A DNA stretch of 64,000 bases. Source: Alphaproteobacteria bacterium (lineage in GTDB: Bacteria > Pseudomonadota > Alphaproteobacteria > JAAXGF01). Within the stretch, counting starts at the first letter, position 1, and each line of letters starts with the position of its first letter. The translations under genes and the position numbers were made by a program. The notes below the pieces were generated by a model. It made no database searches and was not told the origin of the DNA. It worked only from the letters and a program-made list of their open reading frames with translations. The stretch covers positions 4,876 to 68,875 of the forward strand of contig JAYGED010000075.1 of NCBI GenBank assembly GCA_046582565.1, read 5' to 3'. Below, in pieces: positions 60,301 through 61,886 of this stretch.

Positions 60301-61051
60301 CATCAATGTGCCGATCACCTATGCCCAGGCCTACGCCTCATTCGGCATTCGCTGCGTGGTCGGAAGCTCAATCCCCAACAACACGGGCTCCCTGTCGCCA
60401 ATCCAAATCACAGCCCCCGAGGGCTGTATCCTCAACGCCCCGAGGCCGGCCGCGGTTACCGTGCGCCATGTGATCGGCCAGATGCTGCCCGACGTGGTGC
60501 TCGGCGCGCTTGAGAAGGCGCAGCCGGGGATCGCCCCCGCCGAGGGCTCGTCAAGCCTGTGGAATCCCATGCTGTCGGGCGGACACGGCATGGTCGGCGA
60601 TCATGAGTACGGCGACGCGCTGCCCTTCTCGGTGACCGTGTTTCATTCCGGCGGAACCGGCGCCCGGCCGACCAAACACGGCCTGTCGGCGACTGCCTTC
60701 CCTTCCGGCGTGCGCAATACCCCGGTCGAGATCACCGAATCCATCGCGCCGATCCTGTATATGCGCAAGGAATACCGAACCGGCTCCGGCGGGGACGGGT
60801 CGTACCGGGGCGGCGACGGCCAGGTCATCGAAATCGAGCATGCCCAGGGCGCGCCCTTTGCGGTGTTCGCCCTGTTCGACAGGATCGACCACCCGGCCCG
60901 GGGCCGCAATGGCGGCGGCAATGGAAAGCCCGGCCAGATTCGCCTGGCCAGCGGCGCCACCCTCAAGGGCATGGGCAAACAAATCGTCCCCGCCGGCGAC
61001 CGCCTGATCCTGAAACTCCCCGGCGGCGGCGGCTTGGGCAAGCCCAAATGA
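57395..61051 (+). CDS. Fused hydantoinase/oxoprolinase A-B (HyuA-HyuB, 5-oxoprolinase-like ATP-dependent amidohydrolase)
   Basis: The protein is 1218 aa. The N-terminal 700 aa or so form a Hydantoinase_A region (MTIRLAIDIGGTFTDL...), and the C-terminal 500 aa or so form a Hydantoinase_B region (...DPWHGTGHL.D...). Confidence 0.85.
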   Translation: MTIRLAIDIGGTFTDLVLDRDGTRTATKLLTTPERPADGIMQGIEQILGESETNLGDVDLILHGTTLATNALIERKGARTALIVTEGHRDSVEMAYENRFDQYDINAERPPPLVPRALRLPVAERINFKGEILTPLDEQSVRALIPDLREAGVESVAIGLLHAYANPAHENRVGVIIAEALPELSISLSSDVCPEIREYERQSTTCANAYIQRLMAGYLTDLEQRLAADNFHCPLLLMTSGGNVVTVETAVRYPIRLVESGPAGGAIMAAHIARRLGEDSVFSFDMGGTTAKICLIDHGEPQLSRGFEVARAHRFMKGSGMPIKVPVVEMVEIGAGGGSIASVDDLARIRVGPESAASDPGPACYGLGGDRPTVTDANLIAGRLDGEHFAGGRMSLDGAAAETAVRREIGEPLSLQTIDGALGILEVVDENMASAARVHAVERGEEIEGRTLIAFGGAGPLHAARLAEKLSIDRIIVPNNAGVGSAIGFLLAPVAYEVARSSYMRLDEFDPAPINAAFEAMAAEAEAVVRLGAANEELTERRYAFARYVGQGHEIKIVAPVRTLGKDDGEALRLAFETAYGEQYGRAVPSLAVEVLTWSLTLSAPSPAMDGSASETPTPRKPQAEGVRSMRLPGRGAEMDAKTYDRTALAAGDHMAGPAAITEAQTTTIVPDGFTARLNGDGDIILERAGARTGVVPEGAVRNQILWDRLIAIVEEQAQSIIRTAFSTTVREAGDLSAGLFDLRGRMLAQAVTGTPGHVNAMAAAVLFFMEKYPISTMAEGDVFVTNDPWHGTGHLFDFTVVSPVFVKGAAVGLFASTVHVVDIGGPGFGPDAGQVYEEGLCIPIMHLFRGGVANESLFDIVRANVREPVQVTGDLYSLAASNGVGAARLAALMSEFGLNGLESIGDHIIEKSRAAMIDHIRALPPGRYSNAMTVDGYESPVHIESQLTVSDEGIEVDFNGSSAMSPYGINVPITYAQAYASFGIRCVVGSSIPNNTGSLSPIQITAPEGCILNAPRPAAVTVRHVIGQMLPDVVLGALEKAQPGIAPAEGSSSLWNPMLSGGHGMVGDHEYGDALPFSVTVFHSGGTGARPTKHGLSATAFPSGVRNTPVEITESIAPILYMRKEYRTGSGGDGSYRGGDGQVIEIEHAQGAPFAVFALFDRIDHPARGRNGGGNGKPGQIRLASGATLKGMGKQIVPAGDRLILKLPGGGGLGKPK

Positions 61052-61105
61052 ATTAAGTAAGGTGTCCCCTTAATTATCTCTATTATTGGGTCACCTTACT
61101 TAATT
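61051..61105. repeat. REP-like palindromic hairpin upstream of the RAYT gene
   Basis: The arms aattaagtaaggtgtcccc and gggtcaccttacttaatt are imperfect inverted repeats of about 18 bp with an 18-nt spacer. The element starts at the hydantoinase stop codon. Confidence 0.75.
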
Positions 61106-61141
61106 ATGGACGGTTTAGCATCCCGCCGATAACCTCCTAAT

Positions 61142-61819
61142 ATGGTACGAATAGCGCGCATCGTAGTACCGGGTCTTCCGCATCATGTGACCCAGCGGGG
61201 CAACCGGCGTCAGGACAGTTTCTTCCGTGATGAGGATTACCGGGCCTACCAGGACCTGATGGCCGAATGGTGCGCCCATTATGGCGTGGCGATATGGGCC
61301 TATTGCCTGATGCCCAATCACGTCCACTTGATCGCCGTTCCCGAAACCGAGGCGGCCCTCAGGCAAGCCATAGGCGAGGCGCACCGGCGCTATACACGGC
61401 GCGTCAATTTTCGCGAAGGCTGGCGGGGGCATCTGTGGCAAGGTCGGTTTGCCTCGTTCCCGATGGATGAGCGCCATCTGCTGGCGGCGGCGCGTTATGT
61501 AGAGTTGAACCCGGTGCGCGCCGGTATAACGAAGCGACCCGAGGATTATCTTTGGAGCAGCGCTCACGCACATCTCGCGGGGCAGGATGATCGGTTGGTC
61601 AAAGTCGGCCCGCTCCTCGATGCGGTGGGAGATTGGGCGACGTTTCTCGCCGGGGGATTGGACGAAACCGAACGCGATGCTCTACGACGCCATGAGAACA
61701 GCGGCCGTCCGCTCGGCAACGACGCGTTTATCGGGCAGCTGGAGTCTATTCTCGGACGAACTTTGAAGAAGAAAAATCCGGGTGCGAAACCCAGGCGCGC
61801 TATCAACGAATATGATTAA
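61142..61819 (+). CDS. REP-associated tyrosine transposase (RAYT, IS200/IS605-like Y1 HuH transposase family)
   Basis: The 225-aa protein has the HuH motif (PNHVHLI) and a conserved downstream Tyr region, and it is flanked by REP hairpins. Confidence 0.78.
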   Translation: MVRIARIVVPGLPHHVTQRGNRRQDSFFRDEDYRAYQDLMAEWCAHYGVAIWAYCLMPNHVHLIAVPETEAALRQAIGEAHRRYTRRVNFREGWRGHLWQGRFASFPMDERHLLAAARYVELNPVRAGITKRPEDYLWSSAHAHLAGQDDRLVKVGPLLDAVGDWATFLAGGLDETERDALRRHENSGRPLGNDAFIGQLESILGRTLKKKNPGAKPRRAINEYD

Positions 61820-61886
61820 GGGGACACCTTACTTAATAAGGCGAGCGTTATCGTTATTGGGAATTAAGTAAGGTGTCCCCTTAATT
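61816..61886. repeat. REP-like palindromic hairpin downstream of the RAYT gene
   Basis: The arms attaaggggacaccttacttaat and attaagtaaggtgtccccttaat are a perfect inverted repeat of about 22 bp with a 24-nt spacer. The left arm overlaps the RAYT stop codon, and the core sequence is the same as in the upstream REP. Confidence 0.8.

Follow-up and report, generated by a model that had tools for sequence, protein, structure and literature searches.

Comparison with TIRtrons, REPtrons and IS200/IS605 elements

Among the RAYT-like nucleases, the TIRYTs form the branch that is both the largest and the least understood. GSU2396 of Geobacter sulfurreducens is one of the proteins that were named TIRYTs in Additional file 5 of Di Nocera, De Gregorio and Rocco 2013 (PMC3733652), and the repeats associated with them have the motif GGGGWSAS (Di Nocera et al. 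2013, PMC3733652). They correspond to subclass 2.1 of the TnpAY1 proteins (Quentin et al. 2018, PMC6006769), which is the same group as the RAYT group 1 (Bertels et al. 2017, PMC5581495). The key motifs of this subclass are NHVH, W[EQ], a motif of the Y[IV]ELNP type and a proximal “SS” tail. Its members also have a C-terminal HTH-like domain (Bac_DnaA_C, HTH_23 or HTH_28), with a heterogeneous tail in sub-group 2.1.2, and no REP-like structures were found near their genes (Quentin et al. 2018, PMC6006769).

The window analyzed here is a 64-kb stretch of alphaproteobacterial DNA, and group 1 is described as rare in this class of bacteria. The segment at positions 61051-61911 is most likely a TIRtron, consisting of a single TIRYT gene of subclass 2.1 (“group 1 RAYT”) located between inverted units of 19-26 nt, which has been inserted, has become fixed and is probably immobile. 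TIRtrons are a known but little studied kind of element, and the element in the window belongs to that kind. This settles the annotation of the window, in which the gene and its hairpins are parts of a single insertion of a known kind and do not mark the border of a larger island. The features of the locus are as follows.

57395-61051, plus strand: fused hydantoinase/oxoprolinase gene, stop codon TGA at 61049-61051
61028-61051, plus strand: H, left copy of the duplicated target segment, the last seven hydantoinase codons and the stop codon
61051-61076, plus strand: unit A(+), AATTAAGTAAGGTGTCCCCTTAATTA, a perfect copy
61082-61105, minus strand: unit B(-), the canonically placed left terminal inverted repeat, with its end 36 nt upstream of the ATG
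61051-61105, no strand: upstream hairpin, formed by units A and B
61107-61141, plus strand: promoter-like segment, predicted from an ATG-anchored comparison of 12 loci
61142-61819, plus strand: TIRYT gene, encoding a 225-aa Y1 HuH single-stranded DNA nuclease/transposase-like protein
61812-61838, minus strand: unit C(-), left arm of the downstream hairpin, containing the TIRYT stop codon TAA (61817-61819)
61862-61887, plus strand: unit D(+), right terminal inverted repeat, identical to unit A
61815-61885, no strand: downstream hairpin, formed by units C and D
61888-61911, plus strand: H', decayed second hydantoinase 3' end, GGCGGGCTGTGTAAGCGCGACTGA, 17 of 24 positions identical to H, reading GGLCKRD*
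61913-62077, minus strand: DUF1674 gene, 54 aa, the convergent neighbor and right-hand border of the insertion site, outside the element

Repeat units and hairpins

A search of the window for the 19-mer AATTAAGTAAGGTGTCCCC with up to three mismatches identified four sites, at 61051(+), 61087(-), 61820(-) and 61862(+), compared to the 0.01 expected by shuffling (none of 100 shuffles reached four). A shorter 13-mer search returned the same four sites and no others, and the remaining 63 kb of the window were free of the unit. Positions 61050-61076 (27 nt) have the same sequence as positions 61861-61887, and the gene is bracketed by the inverted pairs B-D (24 nt, 88%) and A-C (26 nt, 96%). Units A, C and D have the end GGGGACAC on the relevant strand and fit the GGGGWSAS motif of the TIRtrons, while unit B reads TGGGTCAC. 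The latter is degenerate at its outer GGGG end, with TGGGTCACC where GGGGACACC is expected, and therefore no longer fits the motif, which distinguishes this inner left repeat from those of other TIRtrons.

The units pair into two hairpins. The arms of the upstream hairpin (61051-61074 and 61082-61105) are 24 nt long and 88% complementary, are separated by a loop of 7 nt and fold at -14.8 kcal/mol as single-stranded DNA (z -6.4). This hairpin begins at position 61051, which is the last base of the hydantoinase TGA, such that the final bases of the stop codon overlap the first repeat unit. The arms of the downstream hairpin (61815-61837 and 61863-61885) are complementary at 23 of 23 positions around a loop of 25 nt, with a folding energy of -23.6 kcal/mol (z -8.1), and the stop codon of the TIRYT gene is located inside the left arm. 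An earlier note on this DNA had described a core repeat and its reverse complement arranged as hairpins on both flanks of the gene, the upstream one beginning at the hydantoinase stop codon and the downstream one overlapping the stop codon of the transposase gene, with no further copies in the 64 kb, and all of these observations hold. The single unit is not palindromic and remains unfolded (0 to -3.5 kcal/mol), in contrast to the dimer with its folding energy of -29 kcal/mol; hairpins are made only by paired units. Covariation in the hairpins could not be assessed in the population, which is nearly clonal across the 11 aligned contigs.

The canonical layout in the relatives, seen at no fewer than 12 gene loci, consists of a unit(-), a promoter 5 nt further on, the gene, and a unit(+) that overlaps the stop codon. 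In the window, both ends of this layout are doubled into hairpins, A(+)B(-) upstream and C(-)D(+) downstream, which differs from the described TIRtrons. The topologies of the two hairpins are opposite, with a unit(+) followed by a unit(-) upstream, and a unit(-) followed by a unit(+) downstream. The downstream (-,+) topology is that of the dispersed dimers in other genomes, and it is also found at the 3' ends of the TIRYT genes at loci L139, L141 and L222, whose proteins are 70-81% identical to the one studied here. The (+,-) topology, which results from the outer upstream unit(+), is rare among the dispersed copies, and none of the other gene loci examined had an extra outer unit in the position of unit A.

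Each hairpin coincides with the exact end of a gene that has a convergent or tandem neighbor, and their main use to the host could be as terminators or insulators that act at the RNA level between the tightly packed convergent hydantoinase and DUF1674 genes, with only an incidental link to the nuclease gene. The stems are strong, and classical REPs have known effects on termination and on the stability of mRNAs. However, neither hairpin is followed by a T-run or was flagged as terminator-like in a terminator scan, and at the ancestral empty site, a 2-nt spacer without any hairpin was sufficient. Furthermore, homologous genes in unrelated phyla and contexts have this unit on their flanks, and the link between unit and gene is thus systematic, making a role confined to the host RNA very unlikely. 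A search against Rfam at E<=10 across positions 60900-62100 gave only sub-threshold chance matches (e.g. Spot_42 at 24 bits compared to 80) and no known RNA family.

The TIRYT protein and its classification

The 225-aa protein matches the Pfam family Y1_Tnp (E 4.8e-14). Its HuH motif (PNHVHLI, H60/H62) and its tyrosine motif (RY119VELNPV) both align to the catalytic motifs of TnpAREP in E. coli (PDB 4er8), and the gene is thereby confirmed as the gene for the 225-aa HuH-Y1 protein that the earlier note had proposed. Consistently, the best structural match of the AF2 model (pLDDT 89) is TnpAREP 4er8 (E 5e-9, TM 0.69), followed by the TnpA proteins of ISDra2 and IS608. The key residues are N59-H60-V61-H62, W99-Q100, Y119-x3-N123-P124 and W138-S139-S140, and beyond these the protein has a helical C-terminal extension and a basic tail. 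The model contains five short helices at residues 141-204, without counterpart beyond 4er8. All of the motifs are invariant or nearly so among 38 homologs, and the catalytic HuH and tyrosine residues are invariant, which argues that catalysis may have been retained. The gene is intact and under purifying selection, with dN/dS values of 0.10-0.19.

The protein is 66% identical over 216 aa (E 2e-109) to GSU2396. Its motifs NHVH, WQ, YVELNP and WSS, the last of which includes the “SS” tail motif, fit subclass 2.1 and not subclasses 2.2 or 2.5, and its length is close to the median of 238 aa. The low copy number, wide taxonomic spread and rarity on plasmids are likewise shared with subclass 2.1. 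As in the TIRtrons (PMC3733652), the gene is flanked by terminal inverted repeats rather than by GTAG REPs, the 3' repeat overlaps the end of the gene, and the repeats also occur elsewhere as singles, dimers and clusters. In contrast to the members of subclass 2.1, no C-terminal HTH domain (Bac_DnaA_C, HTH_23 or HTH_28) was detected, as a Pfam scan of residues 131-225 at E<=10 gave only a chance match to zf-HC2. The strong paired-unit hairpins and the dispersed dimers found here and at the relatives also differ from the account of the subclass in Quentin et al. 2018 (PMC6006769). The flanking hairpins are in conflict with that description, but not with the placement of the protein in subclass 2.1.

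The earlier note had interpreted the locus as a REPtron. A canonical REPtron, such as that of E. coli TnpAREP (RAYT, YafM) with its REP/BIME sequences, comprises a domesticated RAYT between cognate REPs, which are present in high copy numbers in the genome and co-evolve with the gene in a lineage-specific manner. The solved structure closest in fold to the protein is that of TnpAREP, and the two systems have the HuH and Y-x3-NP chemistry in common. Both also have a single-copy gene between hairpin-forming inverted repeats, at a single fixed locus in the window, with dispersed extragenic relatives and a REPIN-like dimer as the hairpin-forming unit. The score of 73 bits against the NCBIfam family REP_Tyr_transpos (NF047646) is near the RAYT equivalog cut-off of 80 bits, but below it, and the identity to E. 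coli TnpAREP (b0228) is only 25% over 95 aa. The consensus unit gAATTAAGTAAGGTGTCCCCnGAAtT lacks a stem with an adjacent GT[AG]G foot, is not self-complementary and does not form a bulged self-palindrome. While classical REP genomes contain about one REP copy per 4-8 kb, the other 63 kb of the window contain none, and the unit is common to bacteria with 12 different phylum labels rather than lineage-specific, with no co-divergence with the lineage. We therefore consider a canonical REPtron unlikely. What stands of the REPtron interpretation is a RAYT-like Y1/HuH gene between inverted copies of a repeat that is also dispersed outside genes in other genomes, whereas the gene is not a canonical RAYT, and the repeat, which lacks the 5' GT[AG]G foot, is not a REP in the strict sense. 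Given the non-palindromic unit, the missing GTAG foot and the GGGGWSAS end, TIRtron is the better name.

The segment upstream of the gene contains a -35-like hexamer, TGGACG (61107-61112), and a -10-like hexamer, TAACCT (61130-61135), separated by a spacer of 17 nt, with 6 nt from the latter to the ATG. The distance from the left unit to the -35-like hexamer is 5 nt, and this geometry is fixed in most of the 12 loci. Both hexamers are weak, and a scan of the window with a strict sigma-70 consensus gave no promoter match. As there is no Shine-Dalgarno sequence ahead of the ATG and only 6 nt downstream of the -10-like hexamer, the mRNA is predicted to be leaderless or nearly so. A putative promoter and leaderless arrangement conserved in this way would be functional in many hosts. 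Among the functional databases, PADLOC gave no match to a defense system, and PHROGs gave a single weak family of unknown function.

Insertion site and population structure

The hydantoinase gene, the DUF1674 gene and rsmB are directly adjacent without the element in the relatives L143 and L144, where the empty sites read ...AAGCCCAAGTAA-tc-TAG... and have the same neighbors as in the window. This shows that the element itself is an insertion, of about 860 bp, into an older junction between the convergent hydantoinase and DUF1674 genes, and that the synteny of the neighbors predates it. The earlier note had placed the gene at the edge of an insert, which is not supported by this synteny, nor by the GC content, which shows no boundary or compositional step at this point of the window.

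The insertion lies between two copies of a 24-bp segment from the 3' end of the hydantoinase gene, the second of them decayed, unlike in the described TIRtrons. Only 3 of the 127,954 24-mers in the window reach 17 of 24 identities, namely H' itself, H and one other. H' abuts the stop codon of the DUF1674 gene with a 1-nt spacer, and the real hydantoinase end likewise abuts DUF1674 in the empty site. None of 12 other loci had a significant flanking target duplication, and the single high score, at L219, was due to a relic of a repeat unit. IS200/IS605-type transposition leaves no target duplication. The H/H' duplication is at odds with transposition of that type and was counted against the mechanism proposed for the TIRtron.

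The hydantoinase gene is intact. A truncation by the insertion was considered and rejected, since the Hydantoinase_B profile is complete (3-519 of 519). The profile match extends to residue 1217 of 1218, and the orthologous protein at the empty site has the same ending, GGLGKPK*.

An identical TIRYT protein is present on 22 contigs, and all 10 places among the matches listed have the same context. A look-up with the DUF1674 gene also gave 22 contigs, and all 10 places among the matches listed carry the element, with no empty-site alleles among the matches listed from the 22 contigs. The alignment of 11 contigs contains three SNPs in 960 bp, none of which is located in the hairpins. The element is thus fixed at a single site in the population, among the places listed.

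An active, autonomous insertion sequence of the IS200/IS605 type, which is now transposing in the genome and has the hairpins as its subterminal left and right ends, would share several features with the locus. The protein has the Y1 transposase fold of IS608 and ISDra2, the element is demonstrably an insertion relative to L143 and L144, and relatives at 70-81% protein identity are located in different genomic contexts. Internally deleted, non-autonomous derivatives that retain both ends are also known as the MITE-like PATEs of IS200/IS605. However, the tyrosine motif is Y-x3-NP and not the Y-x3-Q of IS200, and the score against the NCBIfam family transpos_IS200 is 20.2 bits, compared to a cut-off of 55. 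The ends are inverted repeats, whereas those of IS200/IS605 are two differing subterminal hairpins on one strand, and the gene is neither multicopy nor accompanied by tnpB. Its single context among the places listed, the near-clonality of the aligned contigs and the target duplication also speak against it, and the dS values of at least 0.7 to the nearest relatives indicate that there was no recent spread. An active insertion sequence is quite unlikely in view of these differences. The damaged inner left repeat and the lack of a dispersed copy in 63 kb suggest instead that the TIRtron is a resident and probably immobile element.

The repeat unit in other genomes

A genome scan identified the exact 18-mer in at least 118 stretches from at least about 93 genomes with 12 phylum labels, of which about 17 exact matches could be due to chance in 596 Gb by our own estimate. 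The unit is shared almost unchanged by bacteria assigned to these 12 phyla. The loci, at least 118 in number, contain at least 210 units, the counts per genome being lower bounds, and only 12% of the units are located inside long open frames, compared to 74.5% of random positions. Close pairs of dispersed units are of the (-,+) type in 46 cases and of the (+,-) type in two.

The dispersed copies are for the most part inverted dimers outside genes, and a number of them derive from the gene by deletion. The gaps between the paired units form a series of 3-7, 13-39, 83-86 and 147-185 nt. The derivative L038 retains the promoter and 33 codons, and L101 retains the leader and the last ~35 codons. 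This graded series, from the full element to the minimal dimer, documents the origin of REPIN-like repeats from a parent element with a transposase gene. Within single genomes, near-identical dimers form families, with at least six copies in CALFER01 and at least five in DAOVTG01.

Plasmids and phages are not evident vehicles for the spread of the unit, as the exact 18-mer was absent from 2.9 M viral contigs, and protein matches were limited to one at 29% identity among 50,697 phage records and to 26 of 72,556 plasmid records, all below 45% identity. A literature search for the repeat sequence returned no relevant paper, and the sequence is absent as text from the supplements of the key papers.

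The very strong conservation of unit and protein under purifying selection, the stable single-copy gene and the extragenic location of the units would also fit a domesticated regulatory protein that no longer moves DNA, but binds double-stranded units as operators, both for autoregulation at its own -35 element, next to which the left unit ends, and at dispersed units near other genes. The invariant HuH and tyrosine residues argue for retained catalysis instead, the dimer families and deletion derivatives indicate copying rather than just binding, and no HTH was detected. A purely regulatory role is highly improbable on these grounds, although regulation is compatible with the TIRtron explanation and does not exclude it.

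Proposed mechanism and evolution of the unit

By homology to the TnpA proteins of IS608 and ISDra2 and to E. coli TnpAREP, His60 and His62 would coordinate a divalent metal ion, and Tyr119 would cut and rejoin single-stranded DNA. The putative substrate is the stem of two paired inverted units, the foot of which is formed by the conserved GGGGACAC/GTGTCCCC. If the foot is cleaved, pairs of units may excise and reinsert, which would yield the (-,+) dimers outside genes and the MITE/REPIN-like copies with internal deletions in other genomes. We infer both the catalysis on hairpins and the position of the cleavage; cleavage of the hairpins by the TIRYT is an extrapolation, and the papers found to use the term TIRYT are purely computational. 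A Y1 mechanism that is strand-specific would usually go with direct and not inverted ends, and the inverted ends of the element were counted against the proposed mechanism. The comparative picture offers a defined candidate substrate, namely the (-,+) dimer with its conserved foot.

The units remain identical over a range of dS values from 0.7 to saturation. One tentative reading, which we consider possible but not probable, is that the 19-nt word is held invariant by the TIRYT clade in at least about 93 species with 12 phylum labels, although synonymous sites are saturated and the proteins are only ~57-66% identical, and that it seeds pan-bacterial MITE/REPIN-like dimers and deletion derivatives as a “universal REPIN”. 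Such a word would differ from the classical REP/RAYT pairs, which co-diverge in a lineage-specific manner, and from the published view of subclass 2.1 as being without associated repeats. With a repeat that is fixed while the protein diverges, the clade is well suited for studying how Y1 nucleases recognize the sequence of DNA rather than its shape. As an extension of this tentative reading, pairs of units may be able to enclose unrelated cargo and swap it; the sister genome L142 contains a GFA gene between relics of the unit at exactly the site that is occupied by the TIRtron in the window.

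A Y1 transposase gene framed by two hairpins

The earlier note described a gene for a 225-aa transposase flanked by repeat hairpins, and both parts of this description hold. The ORF spans 61142-61819 on the forward strand, and folding of the two flanks yields two hairpins formed by paired copies of a 19-26-nt unit (AAGTAAGGTGTCCCC). A search with the 19-mer AATTAAGTAAGGTGTCCCC at up to three mismatches recovered four sites in the 64-kb window, all at the locus, as had been noted by eye. The chance expectation from shuffled sequences is 0.01, and a 13-mer search with two mismatches returned the identical four sites.

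Repeat units and promoter-like segment at the locus
from 61051, + strand: unit A, 19-mer search match
at 61087, - strand: 19-mer search match within unit B, two mismatches
61107-61141, upstream of the ATG: promoter-like segment, TGGACG-17-TAACCT-6-ATG
at 61820, - strand: 19-mer search match within unit C, one mismatch
from 61862, + strand: unit D, 19-mer search match

The upstream hairpin (arms 61051-61074 and 61082-61105, 88% complementary, 7-nt loop) has an energy of -14.8 kcal/mol as single-stranded DNA (z -6.4) and starts at the hydantoinase stop, as proposed, its first base being the last base of the TGA. The downstream hairpin (arms 61815-61837 and 61863-61885, 23/23 paired, 25-nt loop) has an energy of -23.6 kcal/mol (z -8.1) and likewise overlaps the gene's own stop codon, with the TAA at 61817-61819 lying within its left arm. 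The two hairpins are opposite in topology: taking AATTAAGTAAGGTGTCCCC as the + orientation, the locus reads A(+) B(-) gene C(-) D(+). A 27-nt stretch is the same in units A and D, and the G-rich end of unit B is damaged (TGGGTCACC, expected GGGGACACC).

Family placement of the protein

The protein matches the Pfam Y1_Tnp profile (E 4.8e-14) and scores 73 bits with the NCBI curated model for REP-associated tyrosine transposases (RAYT; cut-off 80) and 20 bits with that for IS200 transposases (cut-off 55). The expected HuH and tyrosine motifs are in place, since PNHVHLI and RYVELNPV align with E. coli TnpAREP (PDB 4er8). An AlphaFold model built from 38 homologues (mean pLDDT 89, pTM 0.86) has 4er8 as its top structural match (E 5e-9, TM 0.69 on the target). 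The next best matches are the transposases of ISDra2 and IS608. The residues N59, H60, H62, W99, Q100, Y119, E121, N123 and P124, as well as W138, S139, S140, G188, R189 and P190, are invariant in the 38-sequence alignment.

The NHVH, WQ, YVELNP and 'SS' motifs of the protein correspond to those given for TnpAY1 subclass 2.1 in Table 1 of Quentin et al. 2018 (PMC6006769). According to that paper, subclass 2.1 equals Bertels' group 1 and probably also the TIR-associated tyrosine transposases (TIRYTs) described by Di Nocera et al. 2013. The description of the subclass includes a C-terminal HTH; the window protein departs from it, as Pfam detected no HTH in its C-terminal 95 residues. GSU2396 of G. 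sulfurreducens, one of the TIRYTs aligned in Additional file 5 of Di Nocera et al. 2013 (PMC3733652), is 66% identical to the window protein over 216 aa (E 2e-109), and the E. coli RAYT is 25% identical over 95 aa. At the level of sequence, this direct comparison confirms the predicted placement in subclass 2.1 and among the TIRYTs. The wider family comprises 988 cluster representatives at E≤1e-30 and 14,147 at E≤1e-10.

The repeat differs from a strict REP

The locus had been read as a REPtron. This reading stands in so far as a Y1 gene lies between hairpin-forming inverted repeats, but fails on the unit, which neither folds on its own nor carries a GT[AG]G foot. The single unit has 0 kcal/mol in its common variant and -3.5 kcal/mol in the window variant; the inverted dimer of units has -29 kcal/mol. 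Its G-rich end, GGGGACAC, matches GGGGWSAS, a motif that Di Nocera et al. 2013 (PMC3733652) report from many TIRYT-flanking inverted repeats. The repeat is thus not a REP in the strict sense. The locus is a TIRtron, made up of a resident TIRYT gene and its inverted repeats, which at this site have been elaborated into two hairpins. Quentin et al. (PMC6006769) reported no REP-like hairpins beside subclass 2.1 genes, whereas the window gene has them.

Insertion behind the hydantoinase gene

Among metagenome contigs, 77 loci matched the C-terminal 260 residues of the hydantoinase. The empty sites L143 and L144 have the same neighbours (hydantoinase 87%, RsmB ~80% identical) without the Y1 gene and without units, and their hydantoinase and DUF1674 stops are 2 nt apart (...AAGCCCAAGTAA-tc-TAGAAGTCG); in the window, ~860 bp separate the two gene ends. 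The element is an insertion. Directly right of unit D, the segment 61888-61911 (GGCGGGCTGTGTAAGCGCGACTGA) is identical at 17/24 positions to the hydantoinase 3' end (61028-61051), lies in register with the hydantoinase stop codon and borders on the DUF1674 stop just like the hydantoinase end of the empty site. Of the 127,954 24-mers in the window, three reach 17/24 identity; besides this segment and the hydantoinase end there is a single further one. A MAFFT alignment places the empty-site hydantoinase end against both flanks of the element. The insertion is thus bounded by a decayed target duplication. Translated, the 24-bp direct repeat reads GGLGKPK* on the left and GGLCKRD* on the right. 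A target duplication is not expected from IS200/IS605-type (Y1) transposition, yet the window insertion has one; no comparable flanking duplication was found at 12 other loci. The hydantoinase is complete (Pfam profile positions 3-519 of 519) and shares its C-terminal GGLGKPK* with the empty-site orthologue. The earlier placement at the edge of a larger insert found no support, there being no GC step at the element.

The hydantoinase/oxoprolinase gene (57395-61051) encodes a fused HyuA-HyuB of 1218 aa. On a contig from the population (L119:1-2910), this region is called as two genes of 714 aa and 489 aa, reflecting either a frameshift variant or an assembly error.

In the sister genome L142 (hydantoinase 92%, RsmB 89% identical), positions 3955-4650 are equivalent to window positions 61049-61915. 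The hydantoinase stop there carries a degenerate unit(+) (TGAATTAAGcAAGcTGTCCCtTTtATT), and the place of the TIRYT gene is taken by a GFA-family gene of 130 aa (Pfam E 5.9e-22), followed by a unit(-), a CCTTAATTA remnant and a 19-nt copy of the window-type DUF1674 3' end before the genome's own diverged DUF1674 end. The gene between these units has been swapped or replaced, possibly via recombination with a window-like donor. The right copy of the window's 24-bp repeat is nearer to the hydantoinase end of L142 (19/24). A further degenerate unit (ATAAGTAAGcTGTCCtC) lies at L142:225-260, 38 nt upstream of the hydantoinase start, where the window has a different neighbour and no unit.

Fixation and selection

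The identical protein is encoded on 22 contigs from different samples, and 10/10 listed places share one context (hydantoinase, Y1, DUF1674, rsmB, rpe). A DUF1674 protein look-up revealed no allele without the element among the matches listed, and an alignment of 11 contigs with the window shows 3 differing positions in 960 bp, all outside the hairpins. In the population contigs examined, the element is fixed at this site. Relatives at 70-81% protein identity each have a different context. The gene is under selection, with dN/dS of 0.10-0.19 against nine relatives, where computable. Synonymous divergence (dS) is 0.7 to the closest relative and saturated for the Desulfobacterota copies, and still an identical 15-19-nt core of the unit is kept in four other loci (L139, L140, L108, L109), which indicates that constraint, and not recent transfer, conserves the repeat. 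Searches of phage and viral collections found no close relatives, and plasmids carry almost none. No signs of activity were seen in this genome (one fixed site, damage to one of its two canonical ends, no dispersed units in 63 kb); the element is probably immobile here.

The repeat and its gene in other genomes

The exact 18-mer ATTAAGTAAGGTGTCCCC occurs in at least 118 stretches in a set with one genome per GTDB species, against ~17 chance matches expected by our estimate in 596 Gb. The 118 listed stretches come from about 93 assemblies (hand count from record titles), and the titles of the matches listed bear 12 phylum-level labels. Desulfobacterota/Thermodesulfobacteriota make up the majority of these matches; the other labels are Planctomycetota, Nitrospirae, Elusimicrobia, Riflebacteria, Bacillota, Bacteroidota, Acidobacteriota, Armatimonadota, Hydrogenedentes, Peregrinibacteria and Pseudomonadota (Rhodospirillales). 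The listed matches include three cultured strains: Geobacter hydrogenophilus DSM 13691, Desulfobacter vibrioformis DSM 8776 and Desulfonema magnum 4be13. The flanks of the unit are conserved too (consensus gAATTAAGTAAGGTGTCCCC-n-GAAtT).

The 118 loci hold 210 units, 80 of them isolated, and 12% of the units lie within a stop-free stretch of at least 150 codons versus 74.5% of random positions. Neighbouring units form 46 (-,+), 12 (+,+), 11 (-,-) and 2 (+,-) pairs, the last with gaps of 102 and 193 nt. Given 46 (-,+) against 2 (+,-) pairs, the window's downstream hairpin has the common topology and its upstream hairpin the rare one.

With the Y1 protein, tblastn matched ~20 of the 118 loci, about a dozen (nearly) full-length. 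Gene loci have a uniform layout, whether found via the repeat or independently via the protein, with unit(-) upstream and unit(+) downstream, in one or several copies each. The gene usually stops at a TAA within AAGTAAGG, for example AGAGATAAGTAAGGTGTCCCC. All six protein-first loci (70-81% identity: L139, L140, L219, L222, L225, L228) have an upstream unit(-), which ends ~40 nt before the ATG in five and ~120 nt upstream in L219; some carry unit variants such as AAGTATGGTGTCCCC.

When 12 loci were aligned at the ATG, nine showed a fixed geometry of unit end, 5 nt, TTGAC(A/T), 17 nt, TAnnnT, 6 nt and ATG, lacking a Shine-Dalgarno sequence, and the remaining three were off by 1 to 4 nt. The pattern suggests that a promoter adjoins the left repeat and that the mRNA is leaderless or nearly so. 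The window's own TGGACG-17-TAACCT was too weak for a match in a strict consensus scan. The layout is kept between Alphaproteobacteria and Desulfobacterota (L109, L074, L090, L228, L222, L140 and others).

Non-autonomous derivatives

The (-,+) pairs form a series of gap sizes (3-7, 13-39, 83-86 and 147-185 nt), with 14 cases at 3-7 nt from Nitrospirae, Riflebacteria, Elusimicrobia, Bacillota and Desulfobacterota. CALFER01 contains at least six elements of ~120 nt, each a unit(-), an 83-86-nt interior and a unit(+), three with near-identical interiors, and also a TIRYT gene (L082, 57% identity). The family looks like an amplified MITE.

Elements in CALFER01
L064:2738-2861
L064:4513-4636
L064:4830-4952
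L051:2428-2551
L023:3272-3392
L071:3222-3345

DAOVTG01 has at least five short dimers (close inverted pairs) with a common flank (TCTATTCC/GGAATAGA). In other loci, parts of the gene are left: the promoter and first 33 codons between units in L038, and the leader and last ~35 codons (GRPLG...KPGPKKKDK*) in L101. The left end of L106 (reverse strand, about 1653-2500) is a serial partial duplication, with three tandem copies of left repeat, promoter and gene start, whose ORFs of 10, 25 and 123 aa begin with MARIAKAV in the first and MARIARAV in the other two. Such a size series is expected if internal deletion of the full element produces dimers that are subsequently copied, as has been proposed for REPINs.

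Proposed activity and relation to known elements

By homology, the protein would cut and join single-stranded DNA via a metal bound by His60 and His62 and via Tyr119. The most plausible substrate would be a stem built from two inverted units and carrying GGGGACAC at the foot, and tandem partial repeats near many units (e.g. GGTGTCCCCGGAATT...) hint at cleavage at the stem foot.

TIRtrons and TIRYTs are already known (Di Nocera 2013, PMC3733652; Quentin 2018, PMC6006769; Bertels 2017), and we found no bench study of them in the literature. Relative to the available text of these descriptions, the new results are the 18-19-nt word that is exact across many phyla despite saturated synonymous divergence, the clear derivative series, the fixed promoter geometry and the hairpins beside a subclass 2.1 gene; part of these four may already be in published figures.

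Short tandem partial repeats (GGTGTCCCCGGAATT, CCGGAATTT, CCAGAACTCA, each repeated) adjoin the C-rich end of units, for example in L011:3209-3260, L014, L018, L021, L029, L043 and L108:2041-2170, and may be scars left when units were repeatedly cut and joined, or when slippage occurred at their foot. A dimer with nearly the same 17-nt loop (ttgagaataccttcc/a..) is common to three MAGs (L012:3940-3994, L113:287-341, L117:1048-1102), two labelled Deltaproteobacteria and one Desulfobulbaceae, so that particular dimer variants either travel between genomes or are old.
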